Both the position numbers and the translations under genes were made by a program. The notes beneath the pieces were generated by a model. It was given only the letters and a program-made list of their open reading frames with translations, did not search any database and had not been told where the DNA came from. Positions 6,581 through 55,760 of a stretch of DNA of 64,000 nt are shown here, one piece after another (positions within the stretch are counted from its first letter, which is position 1; the number at the start of each line of letters is the position of its first letter). Origin of the DNA: Chitinophaga pinensis (lineage in GTDB: Bacteria > Bacteroidota > Bacteroidia > 2-12-FULL-35-15); assembly GCA_945879015.1 (NCBI GenBank), contig CAMCUO010000005.1, positions 1,306 to 65,305 on the forward strand, in the 5' to 3' direction.

Positions 6581-7702
6581 ATGAAATTTATTGTTTCCAG
6601 TACTTCATTATTAAAACAATTACAAGCCATCAGTGGTGTGCTTAACTCAAATAATGCTCTTCCGATTTTAGATAATTTTCTTTTCGAAATTGAAAAGGGA
6701 ACTTTGAAGATTTCTGCATCAGATTTGGAAACTACAATGACAACGTCAATTAGTATCGAATCAAAAGATTCAGGTAGCATTGCAGTTCCTGCAAAATTAT
6801 TATTGGATACTTTAAAAACATTTGCAGATCAGCCTTTGACTTTTTCTGTTGATGATAAAAAATACGGAATAGAAATTATTTCTGATTATGGAAAATACAA
6901 ATTAACAGGCCATAACGGAGAAGAGTTTCCAAAATTACCAGCATTGGAATCAGGTTCATCGCTTGATATTGATGCAAGTGTATTAGCATCAGCAATCAAC
7001 AAAACAATTTTTGCAACAGGTAACGATGAACTTCGTCCAGTAATGTCAGGTGTGTTTTGTCAATTAGCTACTGATAGCATTACGTTTGTTGCTACAGATG
7101 CTCATAAATTGGTGCGTTACCGTAGAACAGATGCTAAAGCAAAAGCTGCTTCATCATTCATTATTCCTAAAAAACCATTGAACCTTTTAAAGAATACTTT
7201 AGCTAGTGTTAGTGGAAATGTGAAAATCGAATACAACAATACCAATGCATTTTTCTCATTTGAAAACACAAATTTAATTTGTCGTTTAATTGATGGAAAA
7301 TATCCAAACTACGAAGCAGTTATTCCAAAAGAAAATCCAAATAAATTAACGGTTGATCGTGTTTCATTCTTAAGTTCAATCAAACGTGTCTCTATTTTCT
7401 CAAATAAAACAACTCACCAAGTGCGTTTGAAAATTGCAGGAAGTGAATTGAGTGTTTCTGCGGAAGATCTTGATTTTGCTAACGAAGCAAGCGAAAGATT
7501 AACTTGTCAGTATGGTGGAGAAGACATGGAGATTGGTTTTAACTCTAAATTTTTAGCGGAGATGTTAAGCAACATGTCATGCGAAAATGTAAATTTAGAA
7601 ATGAGCGCACCAAACCGTGCTGGAATTTTATTGCCAACAGAAAAAGATACTGCTGGTGAAGATGTGTTGATGTTGGTGATGCCAGTTATGTTGAATAGCT
7701 AA
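6581..7702 (+). CDS. dnaN: DNA polymerase III beta sliding clamp
   Basis: 373 aa with the typical N-terminus MKFIVSSTSLLKQLQAISGV and three-domain length. Confidence 0.95.
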   Translation: MKFIVSSTSLLKQLQAISGVLNSNNALPILDNFLFEIEKGTLKISASDLETTMTTSISIESKDSGSIAVPAKLLLDTLKTFADQPLTFSVDDKKYGIEIISDYGKYKLTGHNGEEFPKLPALESGSSLDIDASVLASAINKTIFATGNDELRPVMSGVFCQLATDSITFVATDAHKLVRYRRTDAKAKAASSFIIPKKPLNLLKNTLASVSGNVKIEYNNTNAFFSFENTNLICRLIDGKYPNYEAVIPKENPNKLTVDRVSFLSSIKRVSIFSNKTTHQVRLKIAGSELSVSAEDLDFANEASERLTCQYGGEDMEIGFNSKFLAEMLSNMSCENVNLEMSAPNRAGILLPTEKDTAGEDVLMLVMPVMLNS

Positions 7703-7727
7703 ATTCTTGCAAAATATAATTACGAAT

Positions 7728-7757
7728 AAATGTCATCTCGAATTGAGGTGACATTTT
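7728..7757 (+). terminator. Rho-independent terminator after dnaN
   Basis: aaatgtcatctc-gaatt-gaggtgacattt followed by tttg. Confidence 0.6.
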
Positions 7758-7764
7758 TGTTATA

Positions 7765-7892
7765 GAGCGTCATTGCGAGTCACGCCCAGAGCATCGGGGC
7801 GGGATGTGGCAATCTCTCATGATGAGGAGATTCGCTACCATTGAGGAGAGATTGCCACATCTCGCGAAAATGCGGGACTCGCAATGACGCTC
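7765..7892. repeat. Family A composite palindromic element (two roughly 50-nt units in inverted orientation)
   Basis: agagcgtcattgcgagtc...ggatgtggcaatctctc // gagagattgccacatc...gactcgcaatgacgctct. The same two units recur at 23202-23325. Confidence 0.85.
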
Positions 7893-54088: not shown

Positions 54089-54850
54089 TTATATTTTTAT
54101 TCCTGTCCTTACAGTATAATCTATTCTGTTTAAAAGAATTTTTTCTGGAGATACTTCAAAGTATTCATCTACTGCTTTCCTCGCACCTTCCCAATGGCCA
54201 TAGTCATCAATTATAAGAACGCCTTTTTTTACAAGTAGTGGGAATAAATGCAATAATTCGTGTTTTGTTGATTCATACCAATCAGTATCAAGTCGTAAAA
54301 TACTTATACTGGTAGGCAAAACAAAAGGGATTGTATCTTCCACTTTTCCTTTAGTAAAAATAATTTTTTCAGAATTATATCCAGTAGAAAGCATGTTTTT
54401 TTTGACCTCATCAAGCGGACCATAACACCATATTATATCCTTTTCTTTTTCCGTTTTATTCAAAAGCTTTTTTGCAGAATTGCCACCAAAATCGACATCT
54501 TTTTCTGTGGGTTCTGACATGCCTTCAAAAGTATCATAGAGGTATATTTTTCTAGATGTGTCTTTAAAATGGATTAAAGTCAATGCCATCATCATTGCGC
54601 TGCCACCTTTGTAAACGCCACATTCTACAAAATCACCGGGTATTTTATTTTTAACAATGTATTCTACACTTTTAAATAATGAATACATGGGCTCAACTGA
54701 ACAAGTGGAAAACTGTTTGCATTTGTTGTAAATGGCTTCAAAATCAGGCTCCGTCATATCAATCGGAATCCCTGATTTGTTTATTGTGGAATCAGTTTTT
54801 TTGATTTCATAGCCAATATTTCGAAGAGTTTTTTTTATAAAATGTTTCAT
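54089..54850 (-). CDS. TylF/MycF-family class I SAM-dependent O-methyltransferase
   Basis: FVECGVYKGGSAMMMA, LYDTFEGM, LRLDTDWYEST, IIDDYGHWEGA. Confidence 0.75.
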   Translation of the reverse strand: MKHFIKKTLRNIGYEIKKTDSTINKSGIPIDMTEPDFEAIYNKCKQFSTCSVEPMYSLFKSVEYIVKNKIPGDFVECGVYKGGSAMMMALTLIHFKDTSRKIYLYDTFEGMSEPTEKDVDFGGNSAKKLLNKTEKEKDIIWCYGPLDEVKKNMLSTGYNSEKIIFTKGKVEDTIPFVLPTSISILRLDTDWYESTKHELLHLFPLLVKKGVLIIDDYGHWEGARKAVDEYFEVSPEKILLNRIDYTVRTGIKI

Positions 54851-54975
54851 GCTTGCTTCTAATTATGGTGAACAGCTTCCATAATGCTATTTCAATGGCA
54901 ATTTATGTCGCCTTTTCGAGTATGATCTCTTGACGATATTGTTAACTATTACTAGTGACCTCGAAGGGAGTCGAA

Positions 54976-55015
54976 TGGCGAGACTTTGCTCGCCACCGGG
55001 AGCAGTGCCTCGTGG
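54976..55015. repeat. Double-hairpin insert E1 (tggcgag-actttg-ctcgcca + ccgggag-cagtgc-ctcgtgg)
   Basis: Inserted at the T-stem/T-loop junction of the relic tRNA. It is the most diverged of the four copies. Confidence 0.7.
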
Positions 55016-55059
55016 CCCATAACCTTCGGTACCGGAAACCGACACTCTATCCAGTTGAG

Positions 55060-55100
55060 TGGCGAGGCTTAGCTCGTCATCGCGAGCTACGCCTCGCCAC
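55060..55100. repeat. Double-hairpin insert E2 (tggcgaggcttagctcgtcatcgcgagctacgcctcgccac)
   Basis: Inserted between tRNA positions 10 and 11 (D-stem). Confidence 0.75.
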
Positions 55101-55114
55101 TACATAATAATTTG

Positions 55115-55188
55115 TGACCTCGAAGGGAGTCGAACCCCCAACCTTCGGTACCGGAAACCGACACTCTATCCAGTTGAGCTACGAAGCC
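55115..55188 (-). tRNA. tRNA-Arg (anticodon CCG)
   Basis: Hand fold of GGCTTCG-TA-GCTC-AACTGGATA-GAGT-G-TCGGT-TTCCGGT-ACCGA-AGGTT-GGGGG-TTCGACT-CCCTT-CGAGGTC-A, 74 nt, no encoded CCA. Four G-U pairs fall in the acceptor and T stems. Confidence 0.75.
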
Positions 55189-55202
55189 AAATTTGTTTTT
55201 TA

Positions 55203-55264
55203 CTCAGTTGAGTGGCGAGGTTTCACTCGCCATCGCGAGTTTTTTGCCTCGCGACTACGAAGCC
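55203..55264 (-). pseudogene. 5' fragment of tRNA-Arg (positions 1-19) with double-hairpin insert E3
   Basis: ctcagttgag + insert + ctacgaagcc. It ends 14 nt before the intact tRNA. Confidence 0.7.
55213..55255. repeat. Double-hairpin insert E3 (tggcgag-gtttca-ctcgcca + tcgcgag-ttttttgc-ctcgcga)
   Basis: Same D-stem insertion point as E2 and E4. Stems are conserved and loops differ. Confidence 0.75.
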
Positions 55265-55292
55265 ATATTTGTTGCAAAGGTAAATTATCTAA

Positions 55293-55553
55293 TTATACTT
55301 TATCGAAATATTTAGTAATGAGTTTATGAAGGTTTTCTGTATTTAAATTTTTCAATTTTTTCTCTAAAATCATCGCATCTGAGCGGCTTTGTTTTTCAAA
55401 ATATCCTATTAATTCCCAAGGAATATATGGTTTTGTAGATTTTTCAATCCCTGAATTGTGCCTATTTAATCTATCTTTAATACTGTTTTTTTGCCCAATA
55501 TAAAAGCGATTGTGACTTTTTGAATGTAAAATATATACGTAAAATTCTACCAT
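55293..55553 (-). CDS. Small GIY-YIG nuclease-family protein
   Basis: 86 aa: FYVYILHS...RFYIGQKNSIKDRLNRHNSG...ILEKKLK (GIY, YIG, Arg and Glu elements). Confidence 0.8.
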   Translation of the reverse strand: MVEFYVYILHSKSHNRFYIGQKNSIKDRLNRHNSGIEKSTKPYIPWELIGYFEKQSRSDAMILEKKLKNLNTENLHKLITKYFDKV

Positions 55554-55562
55554 AATTTATTG

Positions 55563-55654
55563 CCAAACCTTCGGTACCGGAAACCGACACTCTATCCAGT
55601 TGAGTGGCGAGGCTTTGCTCGCCATCGCGAGCTACGCCTCGCGACTACGGAACC
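55563..55654 (-). pseudogene. 5' two-thirds of a second tRNA-Arg(CCG) allele (positions 1 to about 48) with insert E4, truncated where the GIY-YIG gene begins
   Basis: ccaaaccttcggtaccggaaaccgacactctatccagttgag + insert + ctacggaacc. The acceptor 5' strand is GGTTCCG, against GGCTTCG in the intact copy. There is no T arm. Confidence 0.7.
55605..55645. repeat. Double-hairpin insert E4 (tggcgag-gctttg-ctcgcca + tcgcgag-ctacgc-ctcgcga)
   Basis: Cleanest copy, with two perfect 7-bp stems. Confidence 0.8.
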
Positions 55655-55760
55655 ATTATGTTGTAAAGATATTAACTATTTCCCTATGTTTTTATTAGAA
55701 GCAATACAATAAAATCAGTACTTTTATGTTTATATAATGCACTAATTGTGTTTATCTATA

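Follow-up and report, generated by a model that had tools for sequence, protein, structure and literature searches.

Why should 0.7 kb of a bacterial chromosome hold four copies of a short double hairpin, each lodged inside tRNA-derived sequence, next to a gene for a very small GIY-YIG nuclease? The question is raised by positions 54956-55671 of a 64,000-nt stretch of Chitinophaga pinensis DNA (contig CAMCUO010000005.1 of assembly GCA_945879015.1, a Bacteroidia metagenome contig, ENA ERZ27280328), the whole of which is called the window here. Our data point toward this double-hairpin element (DHE; the label covers the window copies E1 to E4 and related copies at loci numbered L###) as a structured DNA module of selfish cassettes in Bacteroidota tRNA genes, built around an Slx1/UPF0213-like GIY-YIG nuclease, and we put the probability of this reading at about 0.55. 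It is carried by the observed anatomy of element and cassette, their insertion status, their association with each other, the covariation of the stems and the dispersal of the element.

Closer inspection of the region revealed one intact tRNA-Arg(CCG) and three partial copies of the same tRNA. The numbering of tRNA nucleotides (nt) is taken from the intact copy, which served as the reference for the partial ones. The DHEs in the window are 40-42 nt long, and the sequence that hosts them is derived from tRNA-Arg(CCG). Read on the minus strand, unit D is followed by the gene for the 86-aa GIY-YIG protein, unit C, the intact tRNA, and unit A, as follows:

55566-55671, minus strand: unit D, made of an ancestral promoter remnant (promoter-like box TATCTTTA, 55664-55671), tRNA nt 1-10 (GGTTCCGTAG, 55645-55654), E4 (55605-55644), and nt 11-47 (55566-55604)
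55293-55553, minus strand: gene for the 86-aa GIY-YIG nuclease of the Slx1/UPF0213-like minimal type (PF01541)
55205-55282, minus strand: unit C, made of the cassette promoter (TACCTTTG, 55275-55282), nt 1-10 (55255-55264), E3 (55213-55254), and nt 11-18 (55205-55212)
55114-55188, minus strand: intact tRNA-Arg(CCG), the sole functional-looking copy (ARAGORN; Rfam tRNA, 56.8 bits)
54956-55103, minus strand: pseudo-tRNA A (unit A), made of GTAG (nt 7-10), E2, nt 11-53, E1, and nt 54-73
55060-55099, minus strand: E2, a DHE with swapped arms at nt 10/11 of pseudo-tRNA A (inverted repeat, folding, covariance model)
54976-55015, minus strand: E1, a degenerate DHE at nt 53/54 of pseudo-tRNA A (E = 1.8e-11 with a model that includes E1)

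Unit D forms the 5' leader of the GIY-YIG gene, whose start codon lies 12 nt beyond it, and the same arrangement is found in L150, L004, L062, and L006. Between unit C and the intact tRNA is a 16-nt filler (55189-55204). Unit C is not present in L150, where the layout is otherwise equal, and it has an independent equivalent at tRNA-Arg(TCT) in L058. Pseudo-tRNA A has no 5' acceptor strand, is not called by ARAGORN, and contains the repeat families D1 and D4; its equivalent in L068 is followed by the ancestral terminator.

An earlier reading of the window, made from the sequence only, had claimed four copies here, three of them between nt 10 and 11 and one between T-stem and T-loop, and none in the rest of the 64 kb. 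All four copies indeed stand where it had placed them, and comparison with the intact tRNA-Arg(CCG) bears out both insertion points, nt 10/11 for E2, E3, and E4 (between GTAG and CTCAAC) and nt 53/54 for E1 (between ..GGG and TTCGAC); the latter site is also filled in L068/L069 and in most of the loci that the protein search brought up. When as many as 2 mismatches are tolerated, the window has six matches to the half-motif TGGCGAG-N6-CTCGCCA, all within E1-E4 (0.04 expected; 0/100 shuffles). A covariance model, run with filters off on the whole window, found only E1-E4, on the minus strand and with E-values of 1e-15 to 2e-11; this test is not independent, as the training alignment contains E1-E4, and the informative figure is the next best match in the window, at E = 1.6. 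In agreement with both, a generic double-hairpin finder brought up nothing further in the 64 kb, nor did a GIY-YIG hidden Markov model or searches for tRNA fragments.

The four copies are not alike. E1 is degenerate: its first hairpin, in tRNA-strand reading, has 2 non-pairs, and its fold is not better than that of shuffles (z of about -1.6 to -2.5). E2 has its arms swapped and folds best as one long hairpin (an inverted repeat with 19-nt arms, 95% complementary), a fold also preferred by E4, and E3 alone folds as two hairpins by itself. As RNA, the window hairpins have folding energies of -23 to -30 kcal/mol (z of -4 to -7). E2 and E4 have a common loop sequence. Segmental duplication, raised in the sequence-only reading as a possible refutation, therefore stands in part: within the window, E2 and E4 may have arisen by duplication from one ancestral insertion, but across loci the insertions are independent.

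Is the complex inserted DNA? Orthologous loci were fetched with the protein PorZ, the product of a neighboring gene, as the query. In L148/L149 (PorZ 88% identical) and L152/L153 (79%), the sites are empty: carA, a terminator, a plain tRNA-Arg(CCG), and porZ follow one another, and in none of the four loci was there a GIY-YIG gene, an element, or a covariance-model match. The tRNA promoter at these empty sites is TACCTTTG. The intact tRNA of the window is identical to the single tRNA of L148 and L152 through nt 69, with one difference in the acceptor stem (GAGGTC vs GAGGCC). Occupied alleles are those of the window, of L150 (PorZ 86%) and L004 (73%), both of which have unit D, the GIY-YIG gene, and the tRNA only, and of L068, which has a decayed unit D, the gene, the tRNA, a two-element unit A, and the ancestral terminator; several structural states thus exist among close relatives. 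Because close relatives with the same neighboring genes carry the plain tRNA-Arg only, the complex is inserted DNA. The same element type, moreover, occurs at several tRNAs, and the suspicion that the element behaves as an insertion has proved right. In a further relative, L151 (2105-2415; PorZ 82%), the tRNA-Arg(CCG) and its promoter are inverted compared to all other relatives; the terminator hairpin behind them is a different one, and the locus has neither a nuclease gene nor an element.

TAnnTTTG is the -7 promoter consensus of the Bacteroidetes. Behind the nuclease gene, the window and L150, L004, L062, and L006, the last of which is a tRNA-Arg(TCG) locus, have an AGATAAT..AC(C)TTTG promoter, and unit D has retained the ancestral promoter context. 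Since this promoter is common to cassettes at different loci and unit D keeps the ancestral one, the cassette brings its own promoter for the displaced tRNA. The nt 1-10 that flank the DHE are always those of the tRNA at the locus, GGGTCCGTAG in L006 (Arg-TCG) and GGTCTCGTAG in L058 (Arg-TCT). Four loci, with three tRNA-Arg isoacceptors between them, have the same DHE type at nt 10/11, and nt 53/54 is the insertion point in tRNA-His, tRNA-Ser, and tRNA-Lys as well as in three tRNA-Arg isoacceptors (ACG, CCT, and CCG, the last in the window and L068). These loci thus bear out the prediction of a small, structured element with recurrent tRNA positions.

Does the element belong to the nuclease gene? 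A second sample was chosen by protein only and comprised 80 metagenome loci with 46-79% identity. A tRNA was found within 200 nt in 54/64 scorable loci, with 17 isoacceptors represented, and in 51 of those 54 it was located upstream on the same strand; the median gap to the gene was 45 nt. A perfect 7-bp T...GA[CG] hairpin was present within 170 nt downstream of 64/87 gene copies. The covariance model matched 54/77 of the loci, and most of the others had a hairpin that was recognizable by eye. Altogether, around 70% of the protein-seeded loci have the double hairpin, which typically abuts a displaced tRNA fragment. Hence, the physical and evolutionary tie of the element to the neighboring GIY-YIG gene, for which only proximity had spoken before, is borne out.

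The commonest layout in this sample is tRNA, nuclease gene, T-arm remnant, double hairpin, and a 3' end that begins with TTCGA. The displaced fragment exactly equals the 3' part of the tRNA in 20/27 cases, and in about 10 of those 20, judged by eye, the identity also spans the 7-17 nt of downstream flank that were shown. DHE junctions differ by lineage (10/11, 25/26, 48/49, 53/54, 61/62, and 65/66) and are nearly all helix boundaries of the cloverleaf, with a few exceptions within the D- or T-loop. The cassettes often form tandem arrays (L093, L075, L128, and L090). In L090, direct-tandem DHEs flank the nuclease gene, three of them (six hairpins) at 142-261 and two at 718-797. The spacers between tRNA-Asp and nuclease gene in L093 (1940-1965 and 2358-2383) hold an antisense copy of tRNA nt ~38-54 (aaccgcgaccccgtgcgt).

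Which feature of the element is kept? The stem sequences vary by lineage (TCGCGAG/TGGCGAG, TCAGGAG/TGACGAG, TGCTGAC/TTCCGAC, CCGAGAC/TGCCGAC, and CACTGAC/CACTGAC) and the pairing is retained. In an alignment of 16 long-type copies (A2), the double hairpin was 99.7% paired with compensatory changes in 11/18 pairs; in an alignment of 18 short-type copies (A3), which includes E1-E4, the values were 97.2% and 9/14. The observed pairing and covariation scores, on which shuffles were judged, were reached by 0/500 shuffles in either case. The high percentages of pairing are partly due to the selection of sequences with a hairpin finder, which does not apply to the variety of stems at a homologous position; furthermore, the inner 4-bp stem, which had no role in the selection, also covaries (A2). 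At the sequence level, conservation extends to the closing T/A pair, to GA(C/G)...(C/G)TC next to the loop, and to two single bases, the G that comes after the first arm and the C that precedes the last. An outer/inner single hairpin, proposed in the sequence-only reading as an alternative pairing, is indeed favored thermodynamically for E2 (and E4), but it is not the conserved fold across relatives and was rejected as such: in A3 it was 83.3% paired with 4/13 compensatory pairs, and position 2/42 was unpaired in 15/18 sequences.

The stem type (GAG vs GAC) tracks the clades of the protein. The nearest neighbor had the same type in 63/65 cases, and 3/2000 permutations reached the observed value. 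Non-pairs in variable stem positions were rare (27/508) and comprised 3 G.T, 10 A.C, and 14 other combinations, with no excess of G-T on the sense strand; the pair tables of A2 and A3 had one G-U among 540 cells. This wobble pattern leans weakly toward a constraint at the level of DNA.

The protein itself consists of a GIY-YIG domain from end to end (86 aa; PF01541, E = 3.1e-13, 50.3 bits vs a cut-off of 22.6). Its catalytic set is complete, with Y7, Y18, G20, R28, H32, N33, E64, and N69 invariant in 35 homologs. Profile searches against the PDB returned 1zg2 (1.2e-08), 1ywl (1.9e-07), and Slx1 (1e-3), and Foldseek gave the same order for the predicted structure (pLDDT 92), with TM scores of 0.64-0.69 and root mean square deviations of 1.7-2.4 Å. 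By both profile and Foldseek, UvrC and I-TevI are more distant than the UPF0213 proteins and Slx1. The protein is of the prokaryotic Slx1-like/UPF0213 minimal GIY-YIG type, and the bacterial stand-alone relatives of Slx1 are regarded as the domain in its minimal form (PMC1564403). With 2,100 clusters at 50% identity and E <= 1e-10, it is a large family. The protein has no sequence-specific DNA-binding module of the I-TevI/Seg type (TIGR01453, 16.6 bits vs a cut-off of 56), and libraries of defense systems and phage proteins gave only weak, partial GIY-YIG matches.

How far has the element spread without the gene? An exact-pattern scan of one genome per species, a sample that was selected with fixed stems and is uninformative on covariation, found 54 loci in about 30 metagenome-assembled genomes (MAGs), essentially all of them Bacteroidota, with up to 5 copies per MAG. 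Among 55 pattern-found copies, 18 were located at tRNA junctions or adjoined a GIY-YIG gene and 37 were solo elsewhere. An abundant generic repetitive extragenic palindrome (REP) with no liking for tRNA, which would have spoken against the sequence-only reading, does not describe the element: a preference for tRNA is seen (18/55), although the element is not exclusive to it (37/55). Position -1 was a purine in 52/54 copies. Direct repeats of at least 7 nt flanked 22% of the copies, compared to 1.3% of random control positions, with lengths of 7-21 nt; a simple transposon with a fixed target-site duplication was rejected on the grounds of this low share and the variable length. In 2.9 M viral contigs, two DHE patterns had 0 matches.

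Some solo copies are located in unusual places. Two MAGs share one such site within a long open frame (L023, 2839-2878, in a frame of 762 aa; L042, 1158-1197), where the in-frame reading of the element is SR(A/G)S(S/T)RDGE(R/P)SLAK within a Lys/Glu-rich linker, which recalls the Rickettsia palindromic elements. Others lie in tandem heptamer tracts (L033, ~7660-7810; also L018, L046, and L038); one such tract has about 13 repeats of the kind ttatcgg / tgttcgg / tggtcgg, and the heptamer period runs on across the element. In a cluster of 19 tRNAs (L022, 1284-5639), an element is placed between tRNA-Cys and tRNA-Ile in a D-loop-like fragment, with tagctcaactg before and gtgg after it. In L044 (1-221), nuclease genes have left two C-terminal fragments with an element between them, which directly adjoins coding sequence (..SEAMILEKKLKNLN); therefore, the element can interrupt the nuclease gene too.

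In these genomes, a cassette occupies the transcription unit of a tRNA, leaving one intact tRNA and a displaced partial copy alongside, and the DHE marks the exact interruption of the partial copy, nearly always at a helix boundary. In the 5' layout, exemplified by the window, the nuclease gene would be read from the original tRNA promoter through nt 1-10, the DHE, and the tRNA remnant, and the promoter supplied by the cassette would drive the intact tRNA. In the 3' layout, that of most lineages, the nuclease gene comes 0-170 nt after the tRNA and is followed by the T-arm remnant, the DHE, and the displaced 3' end; the downstream part of this layout was observed in about 70% of loci. An action of the nuclease on the DHE, and the mode of insertion, are inferred from these observations. 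The two hairpins may form in DNA, either in single strands or as a cruciform, and may be recognized there by the structure-specific nuclease. Breaks at the DHE or at a tRNA helix boundary, and their repair, could then carry copies of the module to further sites. Between a tRNA and an X1-DHE-X2-nuclease donor, one crossover in either X1 or X2 would yield either layout (5', X1-E-X2-filler-X1X2; 3', X1X2-filler-X1-E-X2), and repair by copying from the donor would give the same products. Units C and A and the solo intergenic copies are instances in which the DHE has spread in gene-free form, as a non-autonomous derivative.

Several points weigh against this model. The partnership of nuclease and DHE is deduced from sequence data, and the match of stem type and protein clade could be simple co-inheritance. 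The wobble counts are small, and the hairpin finder scored G.T as a mismatch. A nuclease that cuts tRNA-gene DNA should also cut the host copy, and the intact tRNA lies beside the cassette without visible protection. Moreover, a catalytic domain of 86 aa has no obvious means of joining DNA, and no recombinase, circle, or second element end was seen at the loci. Finally, 37/55 pattern-found copies have no GIY-YIG gene within 500 nt, and about 70% of the solo copies have no flanking repeats; one insertion mode cannot cover all copies.

Could the hairpins act in RNA instead? It is imaginable, but on balance unlikely, that the DHE serves the nuclease mRNA as a structured module of its untranslated regions, with the hairpin pair being cap-like at the 5' end in the 5' layout and protective at the 3' end in the 3' layout. 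It would stabilize the message or keep the tRNA remnant from tRNA folding and processing, and solo copies would be REP-like stabilizers or terminators. Consistent with such a role, the DHE always falls within the predicted transcript and faces the same way with respect to the gene, its hairpins are of high stability in RNA form, the short tRNA-to-gene gap (median, 45 nt) requires co-transcription and processing, and a DHE that divides the remnant at helix boundaries would block a tRNA-like fold. However, G-U wobbles are not enriched on the sense strand, a mere stabilizer has no need for conserved loop-proximal GAS/STC and a conserved closing T/A pair, and the DHE is flipped at D-loop sites (L070, L077, and L065). 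Solo copies in frame within open reading frames or in heptamer tracts do not fit either, and presence/absence polymorphism and target duplications are left unexplained. Rather improbable in our view is an immunity insert, in which a homing nuclease would cut intact tRNA-gene DNA at a helix boundary and the DHE-split fragment, with homology arms on both sides, would be an uncuttable repair template. The fixed tRNA position of the DHE, the perfect tRNA homology on both sides, and the existence of empty and occupied alleles agree with this idea, and the tandem arrays in L093, L075, and L128 are as expected of repeated cutting and repair. There are also precedents: T4 SegB cuts DNA of a tRNA region (PMC2330249) and promotes segmental amplification (PMC13096335). 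But the intact tRNA next to the cassette retains the uninterrupted site, any insertion would immunize, which leaves the conserved, covarying double hairpin unexplained, as are the 37/55 copies away from tRNAs, and the 86-aa protein is devoid of the DNA-binding domains of known GIY-YIG homing enzymes. A role in RNA and a role in immunity are each compatible with a selfish cassette.

The DHE and the gene might also be unrelated, both tolerating or preferring dispensable DNA that flanks tRNAs, with the palindromic repeat being moved by another enzyme or by replication slippage. The majority of copies found by pattern do stand alone, the neighborhood of tRNA genes is a known hot spot, and a TylF-like gene has inserted by the same tRNA, yet we consider a mere hitchhiker a poor candidate: around 70% of the loci chosen by protein have the DHE, typically at a defined place relative to gene and tRNA fragment, stem type follows the protein clades, and no other candidate enzyme was seen in any locus. 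The "unconventional intervening sequence" of the sequence-only reading, an insert that would be removed from a precursor to give a functional tRNA, is hardly credible any more. The precise insert positions inside tRNA sequence would suit it. However, unit D is without T-arm and 3' acceptor strand, unit C consists of nt 1-18 only, and unit A is without nt 1-6, ARAGORN calls the intact gene only, Rfam gave no group I or other intron match, and an intact tRNA adjoins in every locus. Because no interrupted copy is a complete tRNA, each being without an acceptor strand or a whole arm, and because the intact tRNA-Arg lies among them, the inserts are not introns.

To which known systems does a putative selfish nuclease cassette of this kind compare? 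REPs and bacterial interspersed mosaic elements are short imperfect palindromes with conserved stems and variable loops that occur in many copies, and their REP-associated tyrosine transposase (an HUH/Y1 enzyme) is thought to recognize folded DNA. The DHE is likewise palindromic, with conserved stems, variable loops, and multiple copies per genome; it differs by two tandem hairpins on one strand, a GIY-YIG domain in place of HUH/Y1 as the partner, a strong preference for tRNA junctions, and, by exact pattern, at most 5 copies per MAG as opposed to hundreds. Integrative elements that target tRNA genes have attL and attR sites with a duplicated tRNA 3' end, and integron cassettes carry attC. As in such islands, an intact tRNA is regenerated and a displaced partial copy is left, and as in integrons, arrays occur and structure is conserved while sequence varies, as with attC. 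In contrast to both, a recombinase of the tyrosine or serine type is absent, the unit measures just about 0.4 kb, and 5' as well as 3' parts of the tRNA are duplicated. A miniature inverted-repeat transposable element was rejected, as there are two tandem hairpins without terminal inverted repeats and flanking repeats (7-21 nt) in 22% only.

The nuclease gene is accompanied by a covarying double hairpin (in around 70% of the loci chosen by protein) and by a displaced tRNA fragment; to our knowledge, neither is known for Seg enzymes. SegB of phage T4 is encoded by a free-standing GIY-YIG homing endonuclease gene in a tRNA gene cluster (PMC2330249; PMC13096335). The window gene resembles it in being a small selfish GIY-YIG gene among tRNA genes, present or absent between relatives, with local duplication or amplification of the tRNA region, but the window protein is a bare 86-aa domain and its locus is chromosomal, in Bacteroidota. 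Of the hallmarks of free-standing homing endonucleases, occupied and empty alleles are found here and a DNA-binding module is not. Closest in sequence and fold are Slx1 and UPF0213 proteins (YhbQ-type; PDB 1zg2, 1ywl, 6sei, and 7cq3; PMC1564403). Slx1 is a structure-specific nuclease that cuts branched and stem-loop DNA by structure and not by sequence. Its bacterial relatives are held to be housekeeping proteins or of unknown role, whereas the subfamily of the window is multi-copy, forms tandem arrays, is variably present, and is tied to tRNAs and DHEs. The name DHE is also used for elements of fungal mitochondria (Allomyces and Schizosaccharomyces; Paquin et al. 2000, cited in PMC10085805 and PMC2800124). 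Those elements are similarly short and G+C-rich with two adjacent stem-loops, are dispersed between genes and in structural RNA genes, and are taken to be mobile from differences between close relatives; the texts consulted describe no defined partner nuclease, in contrast to the Bacteroidota element, which is fixed at tRNA helix boundaries beside a specific nuclease gene. The likeness is one of form only, and a relationship in sequence is not to be expected.

Neither Rfam nor that part of the literature which was searchable has yielded an account of hairpins with a tRNA-linked GIY-YIG gene in Bacteroidota, and the DHE, which is conserved across many Bacteroidota genomes, is apparently undescribed. 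The pairing of a selfish nuclease gene and a structured repeat has a real chance of being a distinct class of structure-guided mobile elements. We would suggest only tentatively the full form of that idea, a new class in which a minimal Slx1-like nuclease and its cognate 40-nt double-hairpin DNA form a structure-guided insertion system. It would recognize folded DNA (its own hairpins and tRNA-gene helix boundaries) and move the whole cassette or the bare module, with stems and nuclease co-evolving as specificity pairs. If the selfish cassette is confirmed, many UPF0213/Slx1-like proteins would gain a biological context as selfish residents of tRNA genes, and tRNA fragments, pseudo-tRNAs, and tandem small nuclease genes in Bacteroidota annotation would be accounted for. 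The cassettes would exemplify an expression strategy that uses tRNA promoters and terminators and keeps the tRNA intact. The minimal nuclease, moreover, may find its targets by the shape of the DNA, at hairpins and at the helix boundaries of the cloverleaf, which bears on how structure-specific nucleases become mobile elements and could be of interest to tool builders.

An Rfam scan of the window locus and nine related loci yielded only tRNA, with all else being sub-threshold chance matches or artefacts of tRNA modules, and assignment of the DHE to any Rfam family was rejected accordingly. The sub-threshold matches include CRISPR-repeat and snoRNA families, as well as a YrlA (Y-RNA-like) match at 55020-55164 on the minus strand (24.8 bits vs a gathering score of 69). 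The latter is an artefact of tandem tRNA modules, in which the intact tRNA contributes the T-arm and pseudo-tRNA A the D-arm. A gene for a TylF-like O-methyltransferase (PF05711, E = 3e-36) is located at 54089-54850 of the window on the minus strand, between carA and the tRNA complex. It is found likewise in L150 and is missing from the same interval in L148, L149, and L152; it is a second, separate insertion beside the same tRNA gene.

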